DNA from: Acutalibacteraceae bacterium
GTDB lineage: Bacteria > Bacillota > Clostridia > Oscillospirales > Acutalibacteraceae
DNA length: 64,000 nucleotides
Assembly: GCA_045604945.1 (NCBI GenBank)
Contig: JAZUPA010000076.1
Span: forward strand, 2,281 to 66,280
Direction: 5' to 3'
The position numbers were made by a program, and so were the translations under genes. Below the pieces are notes generated by a model. That model did no database searches and had not been told where the DNA came from. It saw only the letters and a program-made list of their open reading frames with translations. Positions 9,817 through 61,196 of the stretch are shown here, piece by piece; within the stretch, counting starts at the first letter, position 1; every line of letters begins with the position of its first letter.

Positions 9817-10939
9817 TCTTATTAAGAAAAACGGAAAAGCAAGACGGGGAGAGTTTGTAACTGTTCACGGTACTTTCCAGACGCCCTGCTTTATGAATGT
9901 TGCAACCACAGGTGCAATCCGCGGTGCTGTTTCGGCACAGGATTTAAAGGAAATAGGCTGTCAGGTACAGCTTTGCAACACCTACCATCTCCATCTTCGC
10001 CCGGGAGATGAAAATGTAAAGGCTCTGGGCGGTGTTCGTGAGTTTACCACATGGGACGGACCTGTTCTTACCGACAGCGGCGGATTTCAGGTTTTTTCCC
10101 TCGCTCCCCTGAGAAAGATCAGGGAAGAGGGTGTGTATTTCTCTTCCCACATTGACGGACACAAGATTTTCATGGGACCTGAGGAGAGCATGAGAATCCA
10201 GTCGAACCTCGCTTCGACTATCGCCATGGCTTTTGACGAGTGTGTTGAAAACCCTGCAAAGCATGAGTATTCCCGTCAGAGCTGCGAGAGAACTACCCGC
10301 TGGCTTATTCGCTGCAAGGAGGAGATGGCAAGACTCAATTCTCTTGAAACTACACTTAACAGGAATCAGCTTCTTTTCGGCATAAACCAGGGCTGTACCT
10401 TTGAGGATCTGAGAATTCAGCATATGCAGCAGATTCGCGAGCTTGACCTTGACGGCTACGCAATAGGCGGTCTTGCTGTAGGCGAGCCTGCGGAAGATAT
10501 GTACAGAATTATCGATGCAGTTGAGCCCGAGATGCCTGAAAATAAGATTCGTTATCTCATGGGTGTCGGCACCCCCGAGAATATTCTCAACGGAGTAAAG
10601 CGCGGAGTTGACCTTTTTGACTGCGTAATGCCCAGCAGAAATGCTCGTCACGGACATGTATTCACCTCTGCGGGTATCATGAATCTCAACAATGCAAAAT
10701 ACACCCTCGATAACAGACCTATCGACGAAAACTGCGATTGCCCCACCTGCAGAAGGTATACAAGGGCATATATTCATCATCTTATCAAGGCTAAGGAAAT
10801 GCTGGCAATGCGCCTGACTGTCATGCACAACCTGTATTTCTACAACAACCTGATGACCCAGATACGCGATGCTCTTGACAATGACAGCTTTGATGAGCTG
10901 TATAACAGACTGCTTCCCACAATTGCTACCAGAATATGA
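9809..10939 (+). CDS. tgt: Queuine tRNA-ribosyltransferase
   Basis: GKARRGEF..., LTDSGGFQV and the CxCxxC zinc motif (CDCPTC). The ATG at 9809 has a GAGG RBS at 6-nt spacing; the ORF track starts at 9797. Confidence 0.93.
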   Translation: MFNLIKKNGKARRGEFVTVHGTFQTPCFMNVATTGAIRGAVSAQDLKEIGCQVQLCNTYHLHLRPGDENVKALGGVREFTTWDGPVLTDSGGFQVFSLAPLRKIREEGVYFSSHIDGHKIFMGPEESMRIQSNLASTIAMAFDECVENPAKHEYSRQSCERTTRWLIRCKEEMARLNSLETTLNRNQLLFGINQGCTFEDLRIQHMQQIRELDLDGYAIGGLAVGEPAEDMYRIIDAVEPEMPENKIRYLMGVGTPENILNGVKRGVDLFDCVMPSRNARHGHVFTSAGIMNLNNAKYTLDNRPIDENCDCPTCRRYTRAYIHHLIKAKEMLAMRLTVMHNLYFYNNLMTQIRDALDNDSFDELYNRLLPTIATRI

Positions 10940-14262: not shown

Positions 14263-14356
14263 ATGCACTAGATATAGTTGTTATTTGCGTTTGTTTGTAC
14301 ATTAACTTGTAGTTATTATTATGTTTACAGAATTTCAGTCAATTAAGGGTGATATA

Positions 14357-15160
14357 ATGAGGCTTGGTTTTATAGGATTCGGTAATATGGCATCGGCTAT
14401 TGCGTCCGGTGTTATCAGAGCAGGTGTTGTATCTGACAGCGATATTTATGCTTATGATGTGATAGATGTCAAGATCGACGAGTTCAGAGAGAGCAATGAT
14501 ATCAATAAATGCTCCTGTATTGCAGAGCTTGTAGGATTCTGTGATATGGTTGTTCTTTCGGTCAAGCCCAATAATTATAATGATGTCCTCTCTGAAATTG
14601 CAAAGACCGATATCAGCGGTGTTACATTTGTCTCTATCGCAGCAGGTATTTCCACCGACAGAATAAAGTCTGTAATAGGTAAGGAAGCCATGGTTGTCCG
14701 CGTTATGCCCAACACTCCGATTCTCCTGGGCTGCGGTGCTGCTGCTGCTTGCAGATGCTCAAATACAGGAGATGAGGAATTCAGAGCTGCCTGCTCACTC
14801 TTTGAATGCAGCGGCGAGCTTGTGGTGCTTGATGAATCAAAGATGAACGAAGTAATCGCTGTCAGCGGTTCTTCTCCTGCATTTCTCTTCCTTTTTGCAA
14901 AGGCTGTGTGTGAGTATGCTGAGTCGGTCGGAATAAGTTTTGATTCTGCAAAGCTTCTTTTTGCACAGACTATGGCAGGCAGTGCAAAGATGATCTTAAA
15001 TTCCGGCGATGACCTGCAGACCCTCATGGACAAGGTCACCTCAAAGGGAGGTACCACAGCAAAGGCTCTTGAGCATTTCTACGCATCAGGCTTTGAGGAT
15101 ATTATCAAAGGCGCAATGCAGGCTTGTACTGACAGAGCCAATGAGCTTGGCAAAGAATAA
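14357..15160 (+). CDS. proC: Pyrroline-5-carboxylate reductase
   Basis: MRLGFIGFGNMASAI Rossmann N-terminus and C-terminal SKGGTT motif. The ATG at 14357 is preferred over the ORF-track start at 14321. Confidence 0.9.
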   Translation: MRLGFIGFGNMASAIASGVIRAGVVSDSDIYAYDVIDVKIDEFRESNDINKCSCIAELVGFCDMVVLSVKPNNYNDVLSEIAKTDISGVTFVSIAAGISTDRIKSVIGKEAMVVRVMPNTPILLGCGAAAACRCSNTGDEEFRAACSLFECSGELVVLDESKMNEVIAVSGSSPAFLFLFAKAVCEYAESVGISFDSAKLLFAQTMAGSAKMILNSGDDLQTLMDKVTSKGGTTAKALEHFYASGFEDIIKGAMQACTDRANELGKE

Positions 15161-15204
15161 AATTTCCTGATTCTTCATAACATATCTGTGAAAGCAGGTG
15201 TGTT

Positions 15205-15774
15205 ATGAAAAGTATAAATAATAAAAGACGTTACGGTATCTGGATTTTTGTTTTTGCGTTTTTGTTTTCTGTCGGCTTTGCTGCAGGTGGTTTTGTTCAG
15301 AAAAGTGACAGAATCAGCGGGACTATAGCGACTTATACGTTTAACCTTGTCGATTCAAGGCTCAGTCATGAAGCCCTTGCGATTTTTACAGATTCAGTTC
15401 TGCCGTATTTTGTGATTCTTGTTGTAATCTGTTTTTTTGCAGTGACGAGGGCAGGTCTGCTTCTTAACAGCTGCATTGTTCTGTGTCTTGGTCTTGGCGA
15501 CGGCGCGCTTGTTTCTGCCATTGCCTGCGATTCAGGGTTCAGTGGAATGGGATTTTCCCTTATTGTGCTGCTGCCTGGTATGATAGCCTCAGGCTGCGCA
15601 ATCATTATGCTTGCAGCCCGTCTGACGGAGCTGTCTTCAGATGGCGACAGACGTCTCTGGTTTTGCCGCAAACAGGGATTGGCATCTCTGTTTATATACA
15701 TTTTCGTTATTATTTTTTCAGGTGGACTGGATGTAACCTTTTCAGTGATTTATAAGGCGGTTGCTCCTGTCTGA
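15205..15774 (+). CDS. Integral membrane protein, possibly stage II sporulation protein M-like
   Basis: 189 aa with about 5 TM helices. Size, topology and position next to xerD resemble SpoIIM, but similarity is judged by eye only. Confidence 0.35.
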   Translation: MKSINNKRRYGIWIFVFAFLFSVGFAAGGFVQKSDRISGTIATYTFNLVDSRLSHEALAIFTDSVLPYFVILVVICFFAVTRAGLLLNSCIVLCLGLGDGALVSAIACDSGFSGMGFSLIVLLPGMIASGCAIIMLAARLTELSSDGDRRLWFCRKQGLASLFIYIFVIIFSGGLDVTFSVIYKAVAPV

Positions 15775-15792
15775 AAACGGAGGTTTAAAATT

Positions 15793-16701
15793 ATGGGAAG
15801 TACGATATTGAATAGTTTCAAGACTTATCTTGTGGAAAAGAAGGCTGTTGCTGACAATACTCTGGAATCCTATTCGAGAGATGTGTCCAGATACCTTGAA
15901 TACCTTGAGCAGGAGGGCGTTGAGCTGACTGCTGCTGATACTGCGGTTGTTGAGGGCTTTGTTGAAGAGCTTAAGAATGCGAATAAATCCGCTGCCACCA
16001 TCACAAGAACAGTTGCTTCCATAAGGGCTCTGTATCAATATCTTATTATGATCGGCGCTGTTGAAACAAATCCTGCAAAGAATATAAAGCTTGAAAAGAC
16101 AGAGAAAAAGCTGCCTGAAATTCTCAATGACAAGGAAATTAGACTTCTTCTGTCAATGCCCAATTCCGAAGAGCCCAAGGGCGCTCGTGACAAGGCAATG
16201 CTTGAGGTTCTTTACGCCACAGGAATCAGGGTTTCTGAGCTTATCAATCTTGATGTCAATGACGTTAAATGCTCAAAGGGTGAGAGAGGCGAGATCATCT
16301 GCCGCGGCGGAAAGACCATGAGAACTGTTCCCATGCATCCTGCTGCAGTTGCTGCCATGAGCCACTATCTTACAAATATCCGTCCCATGCTGGCTACAGA
16401 TACCAGCGCTGATGCACTCTTTATCAATTTAAACGGGCAAAGACTCACAAGACAGGGCTTCTGGAAAATCGTTAAGAACTACGCCGAGGAAGCAAAAATC
16501 GACAAGGAAATAACTCCTCACACACTGAGACATTCCTTTGCAATGCATCTTTATCAGAACGGCGCATCCCTTCACGACCTGCAGAAGATGCTGGGTCATG
16601 CTGATATCTCATCTACACAGCTATATGCAAACATCGTAAAGAAGAATAGTTTTTCCGATGTTTATGACAGATGCCACCCCTTTGCAAACAGAGTTCAGTA
16701 A
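15793..16701 (+). CDS. xerD: Tyrosine recombinase XerD
   Basis: 302 aa with ARDKAMLEVLYATGIRVSEL, HTLRHSFA and LGHADISSTQLY catalytic motifs. Confidence 0.85.
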   Translation: MGSTILNSFKTYLVEKKAVADNTLESYSRDVSRYLEYLEQEGVELTAADTAVVEGFVEELKNANKSAATITRTVASIRALYQYLIMIGAVETNPAKNIKLEKTEKKLPEILNDKEIRLLLSMPNSEEPKGARDKAMLEVLYATGIRVSELINLDVNDVKCSKGERGEIICRGGKTMRTVPMHPAAVAAMSHYLTNIRPMLATDTSADALFINLNGQRLTRQGFWKIVKNYAEEAKIDKEITPHTLRHSFAMHLYQNGASLHDLQKMLGHADISSTQLYANIVKKNSFSDVYDRCHPFANRVQ

Positions 16702-16713
16702 TTACATAATATG

Positions 16714-16745
16714 AAAGCAGCGATTTTTATCGCTGCTTTTTCTTT
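16714..16745 (+). terminator. Rho-independent terminator after xerD
   Basis: GCAGCGA-TTTTTA-TCGCTGC followed by a T-run. Confidence 0.8.
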
Positions 16746-16815
16746 TGTACGCTGAATTTAATAGCTTCGCTGCGGCAATAATCATAGTGTAAAATATGAC
16801 GGGGAGCTGCAGCAG

Positions 16816-17586
16816 ATGCAATATTACAAGGTAGAAGTTTGCGGTGTGAACACGGGTAAGCTCAGTCTTCTGACGGAAGCACAGAAGAATGAGCTGCTGA
16901 GGAAAAGTGCGGCAGGGGACATGAGCGCAAGGGATGCTCTTGTAAACGGAAATCTCAGGCTGGTGCTGAGTGTGGTTCAGAGATTTACAAACCGAGGAGA
17001 AAACCTTGATGACCTCTTTCAGGTCGGCTGTATCGGACTTATAAAGGCAATCGATAATTTTGACCTGTCCCAGCAGGTGCGCTTTTCTACCTACGCAGTG
17101 CCGATGATAATCGGAGAAATCCGACGATATTTAAGGGACAACAACTCTGTAAGAGTAAGCCGCTCGCTGCGGGATACCGCGTATAAGGCGATGCAGGCCA
17201 AGGAGAGGCTTACGCTGAAGCTCGACAGGGAGCCGACGATAGAGGAGATTTCCGTCGAGCTTGAAATGCCCAGAGAAAGCGTTGTAATGGCTCTGGAAGC
17301 GATTGTAGAGCCTGTTTCCCTCTATGAATCTGTTTATTCTGACGGCGCAGATTCGGTATCAATAATCGACCAGATAGGAGACAACAATGACGAAGGCAAC
17401 TGGCTTTCGGAAATATCCATCAGGGAATCGATAAAAAATCTTGGAGACAGAGAAAAAAACATCCTGTCTCTGCGATTTCTGCAGGGGAAAACCCAGATGG
17501 AAGTGGCAAAGGAAATCGGCATATCGCAGGCTCAGGTCAGCAGGCTTGAGAAAAGTGCGCTGAAGGCAATAAAAGAGAAGATATAG
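16816..17586 (+). CDS. sigG: Sporulation sigma factor SigG-like (sigma-70 group 3)
   Basis: KVEVCGVNTGKLSLL..., NGNLRLVLSVVQRF, FSTYAVPMIIGEIRRYLRDN and GISQAQVSRLEK closely resemble B. subtilis SigG as I remember it. Confidence 0.8.
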   Translation: MQYYKVEVCGVNTGKLSLLTEAQKNELLRKSAAGDMSARDALVNGNLRLVLSVVQRFTNRGENLDDLFQVGCIGLIKAIDNFDLSQQVRFSTYAVPMIIGEIRRYLRDNNSVRVSRSLRDTAYKAMQAKERLTLKLDREPTIEEISVELEMPRESVVMALEAIVEPVSLYESVYSDGADSVSIIDQIGDNNDEGNWLSEISIRESIKNLGDREKNILSLRFLQGKTQMEVAKEIGISQAQVSRLEKSALKAIKEKI

Positions 17587-24991: not shown

Positions 24992-25033
24992 AAAATCAGC
25001 AGAACTTGAGAAATCCAAGTTCTGCTGAAAAAT
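24991..25033. terminator. Bidirectional terminator between convergent genes
   Basis: TCAGCAGAACTTG pairs with CAAGTTCTGCTGA (13 bp), flanked by A5 and A5TT. Confidence 0.8.
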
Positions 25034-38793: not shown

Positions 38794-39501
38794 ATGAAGC
38801 GATTGATTATTACCGCTGCAGCTTTTGCAGTTTTATTCATATCGGCACTTGTGCTGTTCTTTTCTGCCTCCGACATGGGAGACAGAAATACTTCTTCTGT
38901 AGTAAACTCAAAGCCTGTAATTATCATAGATGCAGGTCACGGCGGCATCGACGGAGGTGCTGTCGGGGTGTCGGGAATTCCTGAAAAGGATATTAATCTG
39001 CAGATTGCATTGAAGCTCAGGGCAAGACTTACTGTGCTTGGTTATAAGGTCATCATGACAAGAGAAACTGATATCTCAATTCACGATGCATCCGCAGCAA
39101 CAATCAGGCAGAAAAAAGCAAGTGACCTGAAAAACAGGCTGAAAATGACAACTCTCTATCCAGATTCTATACTTATCAGCATACATCAGAATATAATTGA
39201 TATTCCCTCGGTTCGGGGTGCTCAGGTTTTCTACTCCCCGAACAAAGATTCAAGCAAGGTGCTGGCAGGCTATATACAGAATTCTTTGAATCTCTGCATG
39301 CGCTCGGGAAAACCGCGCAATATTACCGAGGCAGGGAGTAATCTGTATCTTTTCTATAATGCCAAGAATACTGCTGTGCTGGTAGAGTGCGGATTCCTTT
39401 CAAACAGTGAAGAGGAATCTCTGCTGCGCTCTGAGGAATATCAGGAATTGCTTGCCTTTGCGGTGAGTAATGCTGTATTAACATACCTTAAGGATGTGTA
39501 A
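38794..39501 (+). CDS. cwlD: N-acetylmuramoyl-L-alanine amidase (Amidase_3), CwlD-like
   Basis: N-terminal TM helix, IIIDAGHGGIDGG, ISIHQN and ECGFLSN motifs. The 235-aa size matches germination-specific CwlD. Confidence 0.7.
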   Translation: MKRLIITAAAFAVLFISALVLFFSASDMGDRNTSSVVNSKPVIIIDAGHGGIDGGAVGVSGIPEKDINLQIALKLRARLTVLGYKVIMTRETDISIHDASAATIRQKKASDLKNRLKMTTLYPDSILISIHQNIIDIPSVRGAQVFYSPNKDSSKVLAGYIQNSLNLCMRSGKPRNITEAGSNLYLFYNAKNTAVLVECGFLSNSEEESLLRSEEYQELLAFAVSNAVLTYLKDV

Positions 39502-39503
39502 CA

Positions 39504-40871
39504 ATGGCTAAGGTCAGAAGTGTTTATGTATGTTCAAATTGTGAATATGAAAACTCCAAGTGGTTGGGCAAGTGTCCTCATTGCGGAGAATGGAACACCT
39601 TCGAGGAGGTTGTGAAGCAGTCGGAAACTGCTGCGTCAGCAGTGCGCACTGCAGCGGTTTACGGTACTGCTCCCATGAAAATAGGCGAGATTCAGACCAA
39701 TGCAGAATTTCGCTATAATACAGGGCTCGGAGAGCTGGACAGGGTGCTTGGAGGAGGCATCGTCAAGGGCTCGATAATCCTTGTTGGCGGCGACCCGGGA
39801 ATAGGTAAGTCTACCATTCTGCTGCAGATATGTGAGCATCTGGGAAAAGGGCAGAAGGTGCTGTATGTATCGGGCGAAGAATCTGCAAAGCAGATAAAGC
39901 TCCGTGCAATGCGCCTTGGCGTCACCAGTGATGCTCTGTATATTCTGACCGAGACCAGTGTTGAGATTATAGCAGAACATATCGGCACAATGTCTCCTGA
40001 TATTGTAATAATTGATTCAATCCAGACCATGGGGCTGTCCTCGGTCTCGTCTTCTCCCGGCAGCGTTACCCAGATACGAGAATCCACGAACTATCTTACC
40101 GCCGTTGCAAAGATGCGCGATATACCCGTTTTCCTTGTAGGTCACGTCAACAAGGACGGCGCTCTGGCAGGTCCTAAGGTGCTCGAACATATTGTCGATG
40201 TTGTTCTTTACTTTGAAGGCGACAGAAATATGTCCTACAGAATTCTGCGCGCTGTCAAAAACCGTTACGGCTCCACTAACGAAATCGGCGTATTTGAAAT
40301 GAGTGACCATGGTCTTATGGAGGTTGAAAACCCCTCAATGATGCTGCTTTCGGGACGACCTGTCGGTGCATCGGGCTCCTGTGTTGCCTGTGTTATGGAG
40401 GGTACAAGACCTATTCTTGCAGAGGTGCAGGGGCTTGCCTGCCAGTCTGCTTATGAAAACCCCAGAAGAATGTCCACAGGCTTTGACCATAACAGACTGG
40501 CACTGCTTATTGCTGTGCTTGAAAAGAGAGCAGGGTATCTCTTCCATAAGTCTGATACATATATAAATGTTGTCGGCGGACTGAGGCTCGATGAGCCAGC
40601 TGCAGACCTTGCAGTGGCAGCGGCTCTCATAAGCAGCCTTACTGATACTGTAATAAGCGATGATGTTGTTATTTTCGGTGAGCTGGGTCTTGCAGGGGAA
40701 ATAAGAAGCGTATCCCACGCCGAAACACGCATCAAAGAAGCAGAAAGGCTTGGATTCAAGAGGTGTATTCTGCCAAAGCATAACGCAGATGTTATCAAGC
40801 TCTCTTCAGACAGCAAAATCAAGCTGATTGCAGCTAATGATATTGCGGATGTTGCAGCTGCCCTGCGCTGA
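39504..40871 (+). CDS. radA: DNA repair protein RadA/Sms
   Basis: N-terminal zinc ribbon (CSNC...CPHCGEW), Walker A GDPGIGKST, KNRYG motif and a Lon-like C-terminal domain. Confidence 0.95.
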   Translation: MAKVRSVYVCSNCEYENSKWLGKCPHCGEWNTFEEVVKQSETAASAVRTAAVYGTAPMKIGEIQTNAEFRYNTGLGELDRVLGGGIVKGSIILVGGDPGIGKSTILLQICEHLGKGQKVLYVSGEESAKQIKLRAMRLGVTSDALYILTETSVEIIAEHIGTMSPDIVIIDSIQTMGLSSVSSSPGSVTQIRESTNYLTAVAKMRDIPVFLVGHVNKDGALAGPKVLEHIVDVVLYFEGDRNMSYRILRAVKNRYGSTNEIGVFEMSDHGLMEVENPSMMLLSGRPVGASGSCVACVMEGTRPILAEVQGLACQSAYENPRRMSTGFDHNRLALLIAVLEKRAGYLFHKSDTYINVVGGLRLDEPAADLAVAAALISSLTDTVISDDVVIFGELGLAGEIRSVSHAETRIKEAERLGFKRCILPKHNADVIKLSSDSKIKLIAANDIADVAAALR

Positions 40872-41028
40872 AATTACCGAAATTGCTGCCGGGGAACAGA
40901 TATTCGTCCCGCTTTTTATAGAAAGGACAGCTGTCGCCGTTATCACTTATGACAGAAGTGCAGCCTGCAAGCTCACATCTGCCGTCAAACTGGTATCTGC
41001 ACTGACTGCTGCATGGAATTAAGTTCAT
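40834..41028 (-). CDS. Small cysteine-rich protein (64 aa) of unknown function
   Basis: The ATG at 41028 lies 5 nt after an AGGTGA RBS. Cys pattern is C-x3-C-x7-C-x4-C-x10-C. The 3' end overlaps radA by 38 nt. Confidence 0.5.
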   Translation of the reverse strand: MNLIPCSSQCRYQFDGRCELAGCTSVISDNGDSCPFYKKRDEYLFPGSNFGNFSAGQLQHPQYH

Positions 41029-41108
41029 TAAAATCACCTGAATTTGAGTTTTTCGTGTTTATTTTGCCCTTAATAAGGCTTTTATTCGCGATTTCGGAGA
41101 TGTTTTAT

Positions 41109-41840
41109 ATGGAAATACTCAAAAATCCGTTGCTTCCCGAAGGGAATGTTACATCAGTTATATGCGGAAATCATCCAAAACTCGCAGAAATGCTCAGAAA
41201 CAGGGGAGTGGAAGCAGTAACACTGGCTGACGATAACAGACTGCCGTTTCCTGTGAGAAATCACGCGGACATGCAGTGCTGCCATGCAGGTGTTGGTAAG
41301 ATTTTTACATCAAACATTGAACTGCCTGCTAAAATCAGTAACTACAGCATAAATCTTATATCTGAAATTCCGTCAGATATATACCCAAACGATTGTTTGC
41401 TTAATTGTTTTGTTATTAACGGAGTTCTTGTAACGGGAAAAAACTGTTCTGAATCTGTTATTGAATTTGCAGATAAAAATTCACTGGAAATCAGGACTGT
41501 AAATCAGGGCTACGCAAAATGCTCAACGGCGATTATCAGCAGCGATGCAGTGATTACTGCTGATAAAACTGTTGCAGCAGCTCTGGAGAATTACTGCAGC
41601 GTACAGATGATAGATCACGGACACATCATTTTGGAAGGCTACAATTACGGTTTTATCGGAGGTACCTGCGGAAAGCTGGCAAAGGACAAACTGGCTTTTT
41701 ACGGAAATCCGTTCAGGCATCCTGACGGCAAAAGGATAATTTCCTTTGCAGAGGAGAATAACTGCGAGGTAATATCGCTGCAGAATGGAGAGCTTATCGA
41801 TTTCGGCGGTTTTATACCGCTGTATGAGAAAAATCAGTAA
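41109..41840 (+). CDS. Conserved-looking hypothetical protein (243 aa), function unknown
   Basis: ATG at 41109 with a GGAG upstream. Contains NHADMQCCH and GYNYGFIGGTCG segments. I cannot name a family with confidence. Confidence 0.6.
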   Translation: MEILKNPLLPEGNVTSVICGNHPKLAEMLRNRGVEAVTLADDNRLPFPVRNHADMQCCHAGVGKIFTSNIELPAKISNYSINLISEIPSDIYPNDCLLNCFVINGVLVTGKNCSESVIEFADKNSLEIRTVNQGYAKCSTAIISSDAVITADKTVAAALENYCSVQMIDHGHIILEGYNYGFIGGTCGKLAKDKLAFYGNPFRHPDGKRIISFAEENNCEVISLQNGELIDFGGFIPLYEKNQ

Positions 41841-41845
41841 AATAT

Positions 41846-41892
41846 GGCGTCAGGGGAGATATTTTTACAGAAACCTTGACGCCCTGGTTTTT
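41846..41892 (+). terminator. Rho-independent terminator
   Basis: GGCGTCAGG pairs with CCTTGACGCC, followed by CTGGTTTTT. Confidence 0.7.
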
Positions 41893-41904
41893 ATATGATA
41901 TAAT
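41876..41904 (+). promoter_or_regulatory. Sigma-A promoter with extended -10 for the Xer-family gene
   Basis: TTGACG (41876-41881), 17 nt, TATAAT (41899-41904), preceded by TGA. Confidence 0.6.
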
Positions 41905-41930
41905 TATACAAAATGAATATTTTGTATAAT
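41903..41930. other. Perfect 28-bp palindrome with 11-6-11 architecture; dif-like Xer core site or an operator
   Basis: In ATTATACAAAA-TGAATA-TTTTGTATAAT the two arms are exact reverse complements. It overlaps the -10/TSS region and ends 15 nt before the recombinase ATG. Confidence 0.45.
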
Positions 41931-41945
41931 TGAGGGCAGAGGATT

Positions 41946-42920
41946 ATGAAAATAGAGTACATGAAACAAGCTCCTGAGGTTCTTAAAGGCTATTTTGGCT
42001 ATCTGGAGACCGTTAAAGGAAAATCTGCAAAAACTGTTGAAGAATACTTTCTTGACATCAGAACCTTTTTAAGATATCTGAAAATCTCTCGCGGCGTTAT
42101 TTCTACTGATGCAGAATTCTCAGAAATCGACATCAGTGACATTGACGTTGAGTTTTTATCCCGTGTGACGCTTACAGAAATTTTTATGTTTATGAACTAT
42201 ACAGCTTCAGAGCGTAAAAACGACGCAGCAGCTCGTTCCAGAAAATCTTCAGCTCTGAGATCGCTGTTTGATTATCTGACCAATCGCACAGGTCTTATCA
42301 AGGAAAATCCCACACTGAATCTTGACAACCCAAAACTCAAGTCAGCTCTCCCCAAGTTTCTCAGTCTTGAGCAAAGCCGCAAGCTTCTGGAAGCTATTGA
42401 CGGACCTTATAAAGCCCGTGATTATTGTATCGTAACTTTGTTTCTTAACTGCGGTATGCGTCTTTCCGAGCTCGTCGGAATAAATCTCAGCGACATTCTC
42501 GACGACAGACTGCGAATTACCGGTAAAGGCAATAAACAGCGCATTGTATATCTCAATGATGCCTGTATTGAAGCTATCAGAGATTATCTCAAGGTCAGAC
42601 CTGTTGACTGCGTAAAAGACCGCGATGCACTGTTTATAAGCCGAAATAAGAACCGAATCAGCCCTAAGACAGTACAGTATCTTGTTAAAAAATACCTGTC
42701 GGCAATCGGTCTTGATGAAATGAGCGTGCATAAGCTCAGACACACAGCCGCTACGCTTATGTATCAGCACGGCGGCGTAGATATAAGAATCCTGCAGGAT
42801 ATTCTCGGGCATGAAAATCTCGGCACAACGCAGATTTACACCCATATTTCCGATGAGCAGATGCGCAAAGCTGCCCAGTCAAATCCGCTGTCGGATGTCG
42901 GAAAAAAGAAAAAACAGTAA
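41946..42920 (+). CDS. Xer-family tyrosine recombinase (second copy in this window)
   Basis: 324 aa with ARDYCIVTLFLNCGMRLSEL, HKLRHTAAT and LGHENLGTTQIYTH catalytic motifs. Confidence 0.85.
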   Translation: MKIEYMKQAPEVLKGYFGYLETVKGKSAKTVEEYFLDIRTFLRYLKISRGVISTDAEFSEIDISDIDVEFLSRVTLTEIFMFMNYTASERKNDAAARSRKSSALRSLFDYLTNRTGLIKENPTLNLDNPKLKSALPKFLSLEQSRKLLEAIDGPYKARDYCIVTLFLNCGMRLSELVGINLSDILDDRLRITGKGNKQRIVYLNDACIEAIRDYLKVRPVDCVKDRDALFISRNKNRISPKTVQYLVKKYLSAIGLDEMSVHKLRHTAATLMYQHGGVDIRILQDILGHENLGTTQIYTHISDEQMRKAAQSNPLSDVGKKKKQ

Positions 42921-42922
42921 TA

Positions 42923-42950
42923 AAAAGCCCACTCATAAGAGTGGGCTTTT
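42923..42950. terminator. Bidirectional terminator at the convergence of + and - gene blocks
   Basis: AAAAGCCCACTC-ATAA-GAGTGGGCTTTT. Confidence 0.85.
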
Positions 42951-45307: not shown

Positions 45308-45898
45308 TCACAAATCCAACTCATAAATTTCGACGCTGTCTGCATCAGCTGCGGCAGCAACAGAACATATGCAATCATCAAAAATTATTGTTCTGAGTTT
45401 GAGGGAGAGCTGATTTCTTGAAATGCAGTTCAGCGGTTCAAGGTTTTCATCGACAAGATTACAGCCGAAAAACCAGTCACTGAACCCCTCCCCTGTTGCC
45501 TTGCATATTGCTTCGCGCAGCGTCCAGAGAATGGTTGCTCTTTCATCGGCGTTTCCGCTATTGATAAATTTTTGCTCGTTATCAGAAAAAAGTCTTTCTT
45601 TTGTGTGAACAGAAAATGTGCGTACAGCTTCTGCATCTACTCCTATTTCACCGTCGGAAACAGCAAGCAAAATTGTATTTTCAGTGTGAGAAATACTTAT
45701 AAACAGCGGAGAATCGACAATATAAGGCTTTCCTTTTTCTGTTTTGCTTATCACTGCATCAATGCCCGTCAGCTCAGTTATCCGTTCTTCAAGCAGCCTG
45801 TATGCGGTTTCTGAAATTAGCCTGTTTTTTTCTGCTTTTGAACTAAGGGCGGCTTTGCAGAGAAAGCCGCCCAGTCTGTACAAATAAAGTTTAATCAT
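45308..45898 (-). CDS. 4'-phosphopantetheinyl transferase, Sfp type
   Basis: GKPY..., ISISHT, IGVDAE and WTLREAICKATGEG motifs. Its ATG overlaps the upstream kinase stop (ATGA). Confidence 0.8.
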   Translation of the reverse strand: MIKLYLYRLGGFLCKAALSSKAEKNRLISETAYRLLEERITELTGIDAVISKTEKGKPYIVDSPLFISISHTENTILLAVSDGEIGVDAEAVRTFSVHTKERLFSDNEQKFINSGNADERATILWTLREAICKATGEGFSDWFFGCNLVDENLEPLNCISRNQLSLKLRTIIFDDCICSVAAAADADSVEIYELDL

Positions 45899-58919: not shown

Positions 58920-61196
58920 ATGAGCGGAAAGGCAAGCATCGGTCGCAGACGAAACAGAAAAGGCAACACAGCTGTTCGCCTTCTAACGGCTGTTCTGATT
59001 ATTATATCCGTTGTACTTACTCTTGAGAACTCAGGTTTCTTCAATGAAACCGTTATTTATGAGCCTTCCGGGATTTCATATTATCAGAATCCTGTATCTC
59101 CCACTGCTGAACCTTGCTACTCCGGTGCAGCCCTGATGGAAACGGTTTCTGAAGGAAATGAAGAAAACAATCTGACTGTATTCAAGGATGGCGTTCCGGG
59201 ACCGAGAACATCAAGAACCGACATAATCGGCGACGGCAAGGATGTATTTACCGTAATGATTTATATGTGTGGTTCAGACAGCGAGAGCAAATTCGGTCTT
59301 GCAAGCGATGATATTGCAGAAATGCTTGCCGCCGAAAAATCAGGGAAGCTCAATATAATACTCCAGACAGGCGGCTCGGCAAGCTGGGAAAATCCATCGA
59401 TCAAAAATCAGGACTGCCGGAGATTCAAAATATCAAAAGGAAAGATGACTTCCCTTTCAACAGGCAACGGCGTAAATATGACAAACTACGCAAATCTGAC
59501 CTCCTTTATCGTTTTCTGCAAAAACAACTACCCCGCTGACAGATATGCCCTTATTCTCTGGGGCAACGGAGGCGCACCCTCGGGAGGATTTGGCTACGAT
59601 GAACTCAATGCCTCCGGAGAATCAATGACCATAGATGAATTGAATCAGGCTCTTTATGCATCGGATGTAAAATTTGATTTTATAGGATTTGATTCACCTG
59701 TTGCTGCAAGCTTTGATACTGCTTTTGTTGCAAACTACTATGCAGACTATCTTATTGCTTCTCAGGAAACTGTCCCTGAAACAGGATGGAATTACACAAA
59801 CTGGCTTTCTGCCATTGCTGAGAATACCTCCCTCGATACCGCAGATATAGCGAAAATTATAATCGATGATTATATAGCTGACTGCACCGAGGCTTCCGCA
59901 GACCAGACTGCAACACTTTCCCTTATTGACCTTGTAGATTTCAACAATCTTGTTCTCCCCTGCACTGCGGACTTTTTTACGAAAATCGATGAAATAATCA
60001 ATGACGGCAATTATCCCTATATTGCAAATGCCCGAGCTGCAGCAAGAGAATTCGGCGGTGCAGATTCAGACCTTGCAGACCTTATGGAGCTTGCGGACAG
60101 AATAAGAACCGATGAGGGCGACAAGCTTATAAAAGCGCTTAAAGACACCGTCAAATATAACAGAACCACCGAAGGTGTTGTAAACGCCAACGGTCTCAGC
60201 ATCTACTTCCCCTTCAATAATCTGCAGGAAACCAACACCGCGATGAATATCTTCCACCGCATCAATATTTCCGACGAATACTTCGGCACTATCAGAAAGT
60301 TTGCGAACATTGCCTTCGGCGGAAGACTTTATTATATGGGCGATGATTCAGAGCAGCCTGCAACAGGTATTTCCAAGAATGTAGCAGAGCATTTCAGCGG
60401 CGTTGATTTTGAAAACTCAATCAAGAGCAACTATGTCTGGGTTGACAGCGAATTCATCGAAAAATGTGAAGATTATTTCCGCAGCAAAACTCTCAGAACA
60501 GATGCTTTTACTTTCAGTCAGGCTGTTACGGAGCAGGGCGAAAGCTATGATGTGATTTATCTTACCGATGAGCAATGGCAGCTTGTTTCCGATGTAACCG
60601 CTGAAGCTTTTATGTATGTTAGCTCCTCTGATTGTTATCTGTCCCTCGGTACATCCTTCCCCGAGCTTACCTACATGAATAACGACTTGCTGCACCTGCT
60701 TCCCCTTGACAGGAGCACCTGTCTTGCAATTGACGGAGTATATGTCGATTCAACTGTCATATCAAGGGACATTTCAACAGATGTGGACAGAATCACTTAC
60801 AGCGTGCCTGTAACTGTTACAACCTCTGCATCAGATACGGAAGAACCTGTCTCCTACCCTGCAGCGCTCCATATTATAAAGGAATATAACCGTCAGCAGA
60901 AATCTGTTGATTTTACCATTGCCTGTGCAGAAATTGCATACGGTACCGAGAGTGATACCATTTCAAGGAAAGTAACTCTGAATGAAGGGGATATAATCAC
61001 TCCGCGATACAGATACTTTGACGGTAATTTCAATGAAGTTCACCCTGACATTACTTCCGCGGATAACTCCATCGAATACTCACTGACCACCTCGGTTACA
61101 GCAGAAGATATTTCGGCTGTTGAGGATTCGGTCATTTACTGCGCCTTTACAGATGTCTACGGAAATGTATTCAGAACAGAGATAAACTTCGACTGA
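58920..61196 (+). CDS. Membrane-anchored clostripain (peptidase C11)-like protein, apparently lacking the catalytic dyad
   Basis: The ATG at 58920 follows a GGAGG RBS, with an N-terminal TM anchor. Family-typical blocks are VMIYMCGSD, LNIILQTGG, YALILWGNGG and FIGFDSPVA. Confidence 0.65.
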   Translation: MSGKASIGRRRNRKGNTAVRLLTAVLIIISVVLTLENSGFFNETVIYEPSGISYYQNPVSPTAEPCYSGAALMETVSEGNEENNLTVFKDGVPGPRTSRTDIIGDGKDVFTVMIYMCGSDSESKFGLASDDIAEMLAAEKSGKLNIILQTGGSASWENPSIKNQDCRRFKISKGKMTSLSTGNGVNMTNYANLTSFIVFCKNNYPADRYALILWGNGGAPSGGFGYDELNASGESMTIDELNQALYASDVKFDFIGFDSPVAASFDTAFVANYYADYLIASQETVPETGWNYTNWLSAIAENTSLDTADIAKIIIDDYIADCTEASADQTATLSLIDLVDFNNLVLPCTADFFTKIDEIINDGNYPYIANARAAAREFGGADSDLADLMELADRIRTDEGDKLIKALKDTVKYNRTTEGVVNANGLSIYFPFNNLQETNTAMNIFHRINISDEYFGTIRKFANIAFGGRLYYMGDDSEQPATGISKNVAEHFSGVDFENSIKSNYVWVDSEFIEKCEDYFRSKTLRTDAFTFSQAVTEQGESYDVIYLTDEQWQLVSDVTAEAFMYVSSSDCYLSLGTSFPELTYMNNDLLHLLPLDRSTCLAIDGVYVDSTVISRDISTDVDRITYSVPVTVTTSASDTEEPVSYPAALHIIKEYNRQQKSVDFTIACAEIAYGTESDTISRKVTLNEGDIITPRYRYFDGNFNEVHPDITSADNSIEYSLTTSVTAEDISAVEDSVIYCAFTDVYGNVFRTEINFD

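Follow-up and report, generated by a model that had tools for sequence, protein, structure and literature searches.

A candidate dif site with identical arms beside a divergent Xer recombinase gene in Acutalibacteraceae and related Oscillospirales

Introduction

In a 64,000-nucleotide stretch of DNA from an Acutalibacteraceae bacterium (contig JAZUPA010000076.1; the whole stretch is called the window below), a perfect 28-bp palindrome lies immediately upstream of a gene encoding an Xer-family tyrosine recombinase of 324 aa. The locus raises the question of whether this palindrome is a dif site, defined here as a site of ~28-31 bp in non-coding DNA with two inverted ~11-bp arms and a 6-8-bp centre, or an operator of the promoter that it overlaps. 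The first-pass annotation, made from the letters alone, preferred the dif-like reading and named the operator as its competitor. We propose that this Clostridia lineage (Acutalibacteraceae/Ruminococcus, Oscillospirales) very probably uses the palindrome as its chromosomal dif site, with a probability of roughly 0.86 as judged from sequence analysis. Every check suggested with that annotation and run here favoured dif.

The dif sites of Clostridia have been poorly defined so far. In the main dif survey, the prediction failed for two Clostridium species (PMC3025954), and its supplement places the predicted dif ~175 degrees from the skew shift in two C. botulinum strains. The review PMC5357621 makes no mention of a Clostridia dif. 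Our literature search retrieved no paper with the sequence of the present site, and none that pairs AGGGGAG, the polar motif described below, with the FtsK-orienting polar sequences (KOPS).

Architecture and conservation of the site

The palindrome reads ATTATACAAAA-TGAATA-TTTTGTATAAT (Table 1) and is perfect both as 11-6-11 and as 13-4-13, exactly as first described; the inverted-repeat finder returned 13-nt arms at 41902-41914 and 41919-41931 with 100% complementarity and a 4-nt spacer. It is intergenic, lying between the stop codon of a DUF6873 gene at 41840 and the ATG of the recombinase gene at 41946, and it ends 15 nt before this ATG. Inverted ~11-bp arms around a 6-bp centre in non-coding DNA are the geometry expected of dif. 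No second copy exists in the window, and the palindrome is not explained by chance. When up to 3 mismatches were allowed, the site pattern matched once in the 64 kb and never in 100 shuffles, and 13-nt arms were reached in none of 40 first-order Markov simulations, where the longest arms were 8-12 nt.

By direct comparison, the right arm agrees with the XerD-arm consensus TTATGTWAAAT at 9 of 11 positions, as stated in the first-pass annotation. Compared with the arm sequences in the supplement of PMC3025954, agreement is 8/11 with the Firmicutes XerD arm and 5/11 with the XerC arm. No better canonical dif was found in the window, where a scan with the Firmicutes dif gave 2 matches at 3 mismatches, no more than expected by chance. 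A search of 41400-42200 for known RNAs gave no match at E <= 1.

A scan of one genome per species yielded 80 related loci, nearly all from metagenome-assembled genomes (MAGs) of Acutalibacteraceae, Ruminococcus and other Oscillospirales, with relatives of the recombinase at 54-90% identity. The 28-bp site, with at most a few changes, is present beside the orthologous recombinase gene in 61 of the 80, which answers in the affirmative the question of whether orthologues carry the same palindrome. Each ~20-kb locus with a site has a single copy, like the window, and the site occurs in either orientation. Its distance to the start codon is 15-182 bp in most loci, 0.4-1.1 kb in five and 8.2 kb in one. 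A search of five loci where it is displaced (L056, L033, L041, L039 and L044) gave no second site, and the insert between site and gene in L056 appears to be a normal - strand gene and not a mobile element. Beyond the site and an adjoining G-rich box (G-box), the flanking DNA is unconserved between species, save for the short upstream region of the recombinase gene. The remaining 19 orthologous loci lack the site, and most of these also lack a positive-to-negative skew switch. Therefore, the site goes with the terminus and not with the gene.

Location at the replication terminus

A positive-to-negative GC-skew switch together with converging genes is a replication-terminus signature in Firmicutes. 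In 2-kb bins, the skew of the window is positive in nearly all bins up to 42000 and negative in almost all bins after it, and the cumulative skew has its maximum at 42042, ~110 bp from the site. Between 4053 and 42920 the long open reading frames (ORFs) occupy the + strand, and between 42956 and 58902 the - strand. At the convergence point (42920/42956), an acyl-CoA ligase gene on the - strand faces the recombinase gene. The skew check proposed earlier was thereby borne out within the window, and the related loci agree with it. Of the 38 loci with enough flanking sequence, 33 have positive skew to the left of the site and 33 negative skew to its right; 28 show both. Such a position at the sign switch is expected of dif. 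Three complete chromosomes could be placed, with the site at 51.7% and 51.3% of two Caproiciproducens chromosomes (CP194790.1 and CP195750.1) and at 53.2% of that of Ruminococcus sp. JE7B6 (NZ_CP162391.1).

A polar motif that switches strand at the site

The KOPS of E. coli and the SpoIIIE recognition sequences (SRS) of B. subtilis reverse their polarity around dif (PMC3384302). Strand bias was counted here in 1.126 Mb of pooled flanks, each oriented to read toward the site. AGGGGAG was the most strand-skewed of 15,342 7-mers, with 119 copies directed toward the site and 4 away, and AGGGGAGA was the most skewed of 28,639 8-mers (76:2). Other 7-mers of the composition of AGGGGAG were 78% skewed and purine-only 7-mers 65%. 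On the + strand, 52 copies lie left of the site and none right of it beyond +100; on the - strand, 69 copies lie to the right and one to the left beyond -100. In the pooled flanks the motif switches strand within ~100 bp of the site, and in the window it also changes strand across the site (Table 1), which is the polarity reversal expected at dif and the outcome that the suggested check of orienting motifs had looked for. AGGGGAG was also considered as a ribosome-binding site and rejected, because its window copies fall within coding sequences and are not followed by a start codon, and because 7-mers of the same composition are far less skewed. A sole wrong-strand copy, at 10104, occurs in the window; it might mark a small local inversion or a tolerated exception.

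We propose the following mechanism for the site. An Xer tyrosine recombinase would act at this single terminus site and add a crossover that converts chromosome dimers to monomers. Two recombinase monomers would each occupy one of the identical 11-13-bp arms, and strands would be exchanged across the 6-bp centre. Both monomers would most likely come from the adjacent 324-aa gene, with the XerD-like protein encoded at 15793 as a possible partner. An FtsK/SpoIIIE-type translocase might recognize AGGGGAG(A), which points to the site on both replichores, and be steered there by it. In the window's lineage, where the recombinase promoter overlaps the left arm, the recombinase bound at dif would also repress its own transcription.

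Mobile elements at the site

Mobile elements use the site or a mimic of it. The complete circular Microviridae genome MG945286.1 (5,332 bp, from elk faeces; L103) carries a near-copy, TTTATACATAA-TGAATA-TTTTGTATAAT, at 1177-1204, in a non-coding gap between VP4-like and peptidase-like regions. It has the centre of the host site and one exact arm, while the other arm has the canonical CATAA. MG945286.1 is a candidate temperate microvirus of rumen Oscillospirales, for which the site may provide a link to the host.

A second case was found in a MAG, where two identical tandem elements of 4,047 bp are inserted exactly at the site, between it and the recombinase gene (L034:1771-10000). Each element encodes a G2P-type rolling-circle initiator of 363 aa and a tyrosine recombinase of 199 aa that consists of the catalytic domain only. 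The host site is unchanged upstream of the array, and each copy ends in CAATACAAAAA-CAGGCA-TTTTGTATAAT, with another centre and one other arm. The crossover is thereby placed where the centre meets the right arm. Experiments have shown the same junction layout for gokushoviruses that integrate at E. coli dif via XerC and XerD (PMC7062461). As evidence for dif, the L034 integration is supportive rather than conclusive. With respect to the G-box, MG945286.1 and the L034 element differ from the host site on opposite arms, and no inference is drawn from this.

Exact arms (12 bp) around different 4-bp centres occur in 15 tailed-phage contigs of IMG/VR (L086, L088, L089 and L091-L102), often just downstream of the portal gene, on fragments that carry portal and terminase genes. 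The phages may use the host recombinase at these arms to resolve their own multimers; multimer-resolution sites and attachment sites are both possible. A 19-nt half-site scan of viral contigs returned mostly probable chance matches and one phage family with TTTATTAACAA-TGAATA-TTTTGTATAAT. In PLSDB, only weak partial matches in unrelated Bacillus and Proteus plasmid records were found.

One recombinase or two

The 324-aa protein matches Pfam Phage_integrase and Phage_int_SAM_1. Reading of the translation and pairwise alignment with the XerD-like protein of the window revealed the catalytic motifs GMRLSEL (Arg), KGNKQR (Lys), HKLRH (His-x-x-Arg), LGHENL (His) and TQIYTH (Tyr), in line with the earlier claim that they are intact. 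The protein scored 214.8 bits against NCBIfam XerC (TIGR02224; cutoff 335.15), 201.4 bits against XerD (TIGR02225; cutoff 329.6) and 160.7 bits against the XerS model (cutoff 267), below the cutoff in each case. Its best solved-structure match is E. coli XerD (1a0p, 130 bits), and XerH (5jjv) gave 66 bits. On these scores it lies outside the XerS and XerH families. Its close homologues are named 'tyrosine recombinase XerC' in the source records.

The genome carries more than one Xer gene. As the first-pass annotation had pointed out, a separate xerD lies at 15793, and its product proved to be near-canonical: it scored 317.6 bits against NCBIfam XerD, short of the cutoff of 329.6, and passed the tyrosine recombinase model NF001399 at 300 bits (cutoff 279). 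Its active site is intact and it is 29% identical to the 324-aa protein.

The arms of the site change in concert across the related loci. Six of 13 arm positions are changed on both arms and 98.5% of the cells are complementary, a level reached in none of 500 shuffles. The symmetric variants include ACTATAC...GTATAGT, CTTATAC...GTATAAG, AATATAC...GTATATT, CATATAC...GTATATG and ATTAAAC...GTTTAAT. In Candidatus Pararuminococcus gallinarum (L066:9870-9897), a different perfect palindrome, ATTTCGCTAAA-TAAAAA-TTTAGCGAAAT, followed by AGGGGAGA, is found 103 bp ahead of the orthologous gene, at a skew switch. Four of its arm positions are changed, and it has the appearance of the same system with a new specificity. 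If one protein reads both arms, they are expected to change in concert, as at loxP or FRT. Symmetric co-variation therefore points to one protein on both arms and is hard to reconcile with two proteins that are 29% identical. By this reasoning, we favour a homodimer of the adjacent 324-aa protein at the two arms.

Alternatively, the site may be a dif served by a conventional pair, in which the XerC-like and XerD-like proteins each take one of two arms that have become identical, and the asymmetry comes from the centre and the flanking G-box only. The presence in the window of a near-canonical XerD with an intact active site speaks for such a pair. In Caproiciproducens, L058, L077 and L087, the XerC-like gene faces an XerD-like gene in convergent orientation, which in the first three is the orthologue of the xerD of the window; two recombinases may therefore act, which tells against the homodimer. 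In Caproiciproducens and L087 this convergent pair adjoins the site, which was not found in L058 and L077. In addition, Thermohalobacter berrensis has an asymmetric site, ATTATACAAAA-TGTATA-TTTTGCGCAAT (L062:9948-9975), which can be seen as an intermediate to established dif sites. It lies 25 bp before the orthologue, where the skew switches strongly (+0.26 to -0.15). Its centre is that of E. coli dif, the G-box is absent, and the gene-proximal arm is of the TGCGCA type, resembling the XerC arms of other bacteria. The two arms differ at 3 positions only, and therefore arm identity is a small step away. However, a pair would require parallel specificity changes in two proteins of 29% identity, as the arms have stayed symmetric through six kinds of change, including four positions in L066, and most loci link only the XerC-like gene to the site. 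We regard the conventional pair as a serious possibility that we do not favour.

The G-box and the flanking unit

One arm of the palindrome is flanked by the G-box, with the consensus T-S-R-G-G-G-r-A-G. In relatives the box is often TGAGGGGAG, which contains AGGGGAG pointing away from the site; exact AGGGGAG is found in the box of 16 loci, always directed away from the palindrome. Of 64 units, 59 have GGG within 9 nt on the box side, and a single one has it on the opposite side. Centre and G-box keep a fixed relative orientation (57:0), with the G of centre position 2 on the box side. The conserved unit is thus larger than the palindrome and asymmetric. Relative to the recombinase gene it is oriented one way in 19 loci, including the window, and the opposite way in 45, in which the box does not precede any gene start. 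That the box of these flipped loci serves a divergent gene as ribosome-binding site was considered too and rejected: the neighbour in L035 is on the + strand and ends at 9825, and no ORF starts at the box.

Further elements accompany the unit in some lineages. Among the flipped loci, L035 (9941-9984) and the equivalent right flank of ~40 Ruminococcus loci have a second conserved, imperfect palindrome TATTCCGATAAGGAATTAT abutting the gene-side arm. Next come a C-rich run CCCTCTCTC and a TGaTATAAT -10 element; on the opposite strand, the run reads as a G-rich box directed toward the site. In L080 (6278-6321), the palindrome grows to 20-nt arms with a G-box on both sides (CCCCGACATATACAAAATAA / ATATTTTGTATATGTCGGGG), the sole case of a symmetric box.

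Since the arms are identical, directionality must come from outside them, and the G-box is a possible source. Speculatively, and with low odds in our view, the box may dock the gamma domain of FtsK/SpoIIIE or load the motor beside one of the two identical monomers, and so set the first cleavage. If so, this would be a previously undescribed means of ordering strand exchange on a symmetric Xer complex, and the lineage would be one where the XerC-like protein took both arms and XerD was kept for another role, e.g. SMC unloading.

Evidence against dif and alternative explanations

Several points count against the assignment as dif, which was made by sequence analysis. The inner arm bases are CAAAA/TTTTG instead of CATAA/TTATG, and the whole site is identical to Bacillus subtilis dif at 17 of 28 positions. 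The single-copy count covers 64 kb plus ~20 kb per locus. In the related loci, the cumulative skew maximum usually falls where the recombinase gene ends, ~1 kb right of the site, and for this reason skew alone cannot separate the site from the gene-convergence point. The chromosomal positions of 51-53% lie opposite the origin only on the assumption that the records start near oriC. Finally, the L034 element has its own 199-aa recombinase and shares 23 bp with the host flank, so its integration need not depend on the host Xer.

In one alternative, the palindrome is mainly an attachment site for elements with their own integrases, or a replication-terminator or hairpin element, and not a dimer-resolution site. 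The small recombinase and the 23 identical bp of L034 fit an attachment site. A hairpin is suggested by the fold of the palindrome as single-stranded DNA (ssDNA), at -9.4 kcal/mol with z = -9, and symmetric co-variation fits a hairpin too. However, nearly all genomes have the site intact and free of inserts, and it always neighbours a chromosomal Xer gene. It has the core-site geometry of tyrosine recombinases and XerD-like arms. In the DNA examined it is a single site, unlike the multiple opposed Ter sites, it matches no RNA family, and its stem is almost entirely A-T. We consider this explanation very improbable.

More improbable still, the palindrome may be only an operator, bound by the recombinase or another repressor at the recombinase promoter, and not a recombination site. 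The overlap on which this idea was built was borne out. The promoter TTGACG-17-TATAAT, which agrees with the consensus at 11 of 12 positions and has TG before the -10, overlaps the left arm with its -10, and the predicted transcription start falls inside the site. This TTGAC(N)-17-TATAAT arrangement is kept in the window, L001-L005, L018 and L081-L083, and each arm holds the extended -10 sequence TGTATAAT. However, the fixed position and orientation relative to the promoter hold only in the window's lineage. The unit has the opposite orientation in 45 of 64 loci, at 45-160 bp upstream of the gene, and this flipped majority has a separate TGnTATAAT promoter nearer the gene than the site. In some loci the site is 0.4-8.2 kb from the gene, and orthologues away from a skew switch have no such site. 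An operator would also leave the polar-motif switch, the terminus position, the conservation and the phage copies unexplained. The operator therefore fails as the main explanation. Autoregulation in the window's lineage is nevertheless probable, because the promoter overlap is conserved there, and may plausibly be a lineage-specific by-product of the site; a similar idea has been raised for difSL-xerS (PMC1914069). An operator of a global regulator was rejected, as the sequence does not fit the CodY, ArgR, LexA or Fur-type boxes and the site is single-copy in all DNA examined.

Comparison with known Xer systems

As a dif site, the palindrome resembles those of XerC/XerD in E. coli and CodV/RipX in B. 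subtilis in its 28 bp, 11-bp arms and 6-bp centre, in its location at the skew switch, in the convergence of a polar G-rich motif, in its hijacking by small ssDNA phages and in the presence of two Xer-family proteins. Its arms match the XerD-arm consensus at 8-9 of 11 positions. It differs from them in that both arms are identical and XerD-like, with no distinct XerC arm and with CAAAA/TTTTG as inner bases, and in that the site is linked to one recombinase gene, the product of which reaches neither the XerC nor the XerD cutoff of NCBIfam. The accompanying polar motif is AGGGGAG(A) instead of GGGNAGGG or GAGAAGGG.

The first-pass annotation had likened the locus to the xerS/difSL and xerH/difH modules. 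The linkage of gene and site stands, whereas membership does not: the protein belongs to neither the XerS nor the XerH family, and the window also encodes an XerD-like protein. In the XerS/difSL system of streptococci and lactococci, which are also Firmicutes, a site-gene module lies at the terminus with difSL immediately upstream of xerS (PMC1914069). However, difSL is 31 bp long with unequal arms and a longer centre (11 bp, PMC5357621), and Streptococcaceae have lost xerC and xerD (PMC8136486), whereas the present genome keeps an XerD-like gene. In the XerH/difH system of Helicobacter and Campylobacter, a single recombinase serves both dif arms (PMC3325230, PMC5241119), as proposed here. The protein of the window belongs to another phylum and is nearer to XerD than to XerH in the structure matches given above. 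The difH site is nearly palindromic and lies near its recombinase gene, and its arms are not known to be perfectly identical.

The XerL/dif system of Legionellales (PMC9765430) is likewise a lineage-specific dif that was missed by homology predictions and is supported by a mobile-element mimic. It differs in a distant and longer recombinase (catalytic tyrosine at residue 387), and no similarity between the site sequences was seen. The elements found here resemble the gokushovirus and CTX-type integrative mobile elements exploiting Xer (IMEX; PMC7062461, PMC3091885) in having dif mimics, with the host site kept upstream and a variant site after each copy. They differ in that the hosts are gut Clostridia and that the L034 element adds its own small recombinase.

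What appears to be new is a symmetric dif of XerD-type arms that is linked to a divergent XerC-like gene and has its own polar motif and a flanking box. The assignment would provide a 28-bp terminus marker for many uncultured gut and rumen genomes of Ruminococcus and Acutalibacteraceae. Such a marker could be used to orient and check metagenome assemblies, to estimate the replication state from read coverage, and to link Microviridae and small elements to their hosts. It would also give an example from nature in which a dif site is fully symmetric while the genome still encodes two Xer proteins. In addition, it offers a candidate translocase-guiding motif for Oscillospirales, along with a conserved flanking box.

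Features and neighbouring genes of the window

The coordinates of the features discussed above are listed in Table 1.

Table 1. Positions of the candidate dif site and associated features in the window.
Feature	Position	Strand	Remarks
dif-like core site	41903..41930	.	arms ATTATACAAAA / TTTTGTATAAT around centre TGAATA
G-rich box TGAGGGCAGAGGA	41931..41943	+	flanks one arm; doubles as recombinase ribosome-binding site in this lineage
Sigma-70-type promoter TTGACG-17-(TG)aTATAAT	41876..41904	+	-10 overlaps left arm
Xer-family tyrosine recombinase, 324 aa, XerC-like, divergent	41946..42920	+	Pfam, NCBIfam and structure matches
Second, near-canonical XerD-like recombinase	15793..16701	+	possible partner at the site; NCBIfam scores
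Last + strand AGGGGAG before the site	41852..41858	+	
Other + strand AGGGGAG copies	3224, 4412, 12458, 13932, 26939, 33514, 34650, 34835, 41202	+	
First - strand AGGGGAG right of the site	45488..45494	-	next at 59955
Terminator-like hairpin, 12-bp stem	42923..42950	- (as called)	between recombinase gene and acyl-CoA ligase gene

The recombinase gene is transcribed away from the site, toward the gene-convergence point. Upstream of it, the order cwlD-like amidase - radA - DUF6873 - recombinase (38794-41840 for the genes before the recombinase) is common to the window and Caproiciproducens, where an efflux pair is inserted. DUF6873, whose function is unknown, consistently precedes the site in the window's lineage. 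A block of proC, a small ORF and xerD, followed by sigG, is found on the + strand at 14321-17586 of the window, ~26 kb upstream of the site. In Caproiciproducens, the proC - small ORF - xerD block lies directly downstream of the XerC-like gene and convergent to it (L081:11042-13483). Because its placement differs between the two, a rearrangement has split the two xer genes in the window's lineage. Two further perfect 13-nt inverted repeats, with 7-nt spacers, occur in the window at 24996 and 63391 and are probably terminators.

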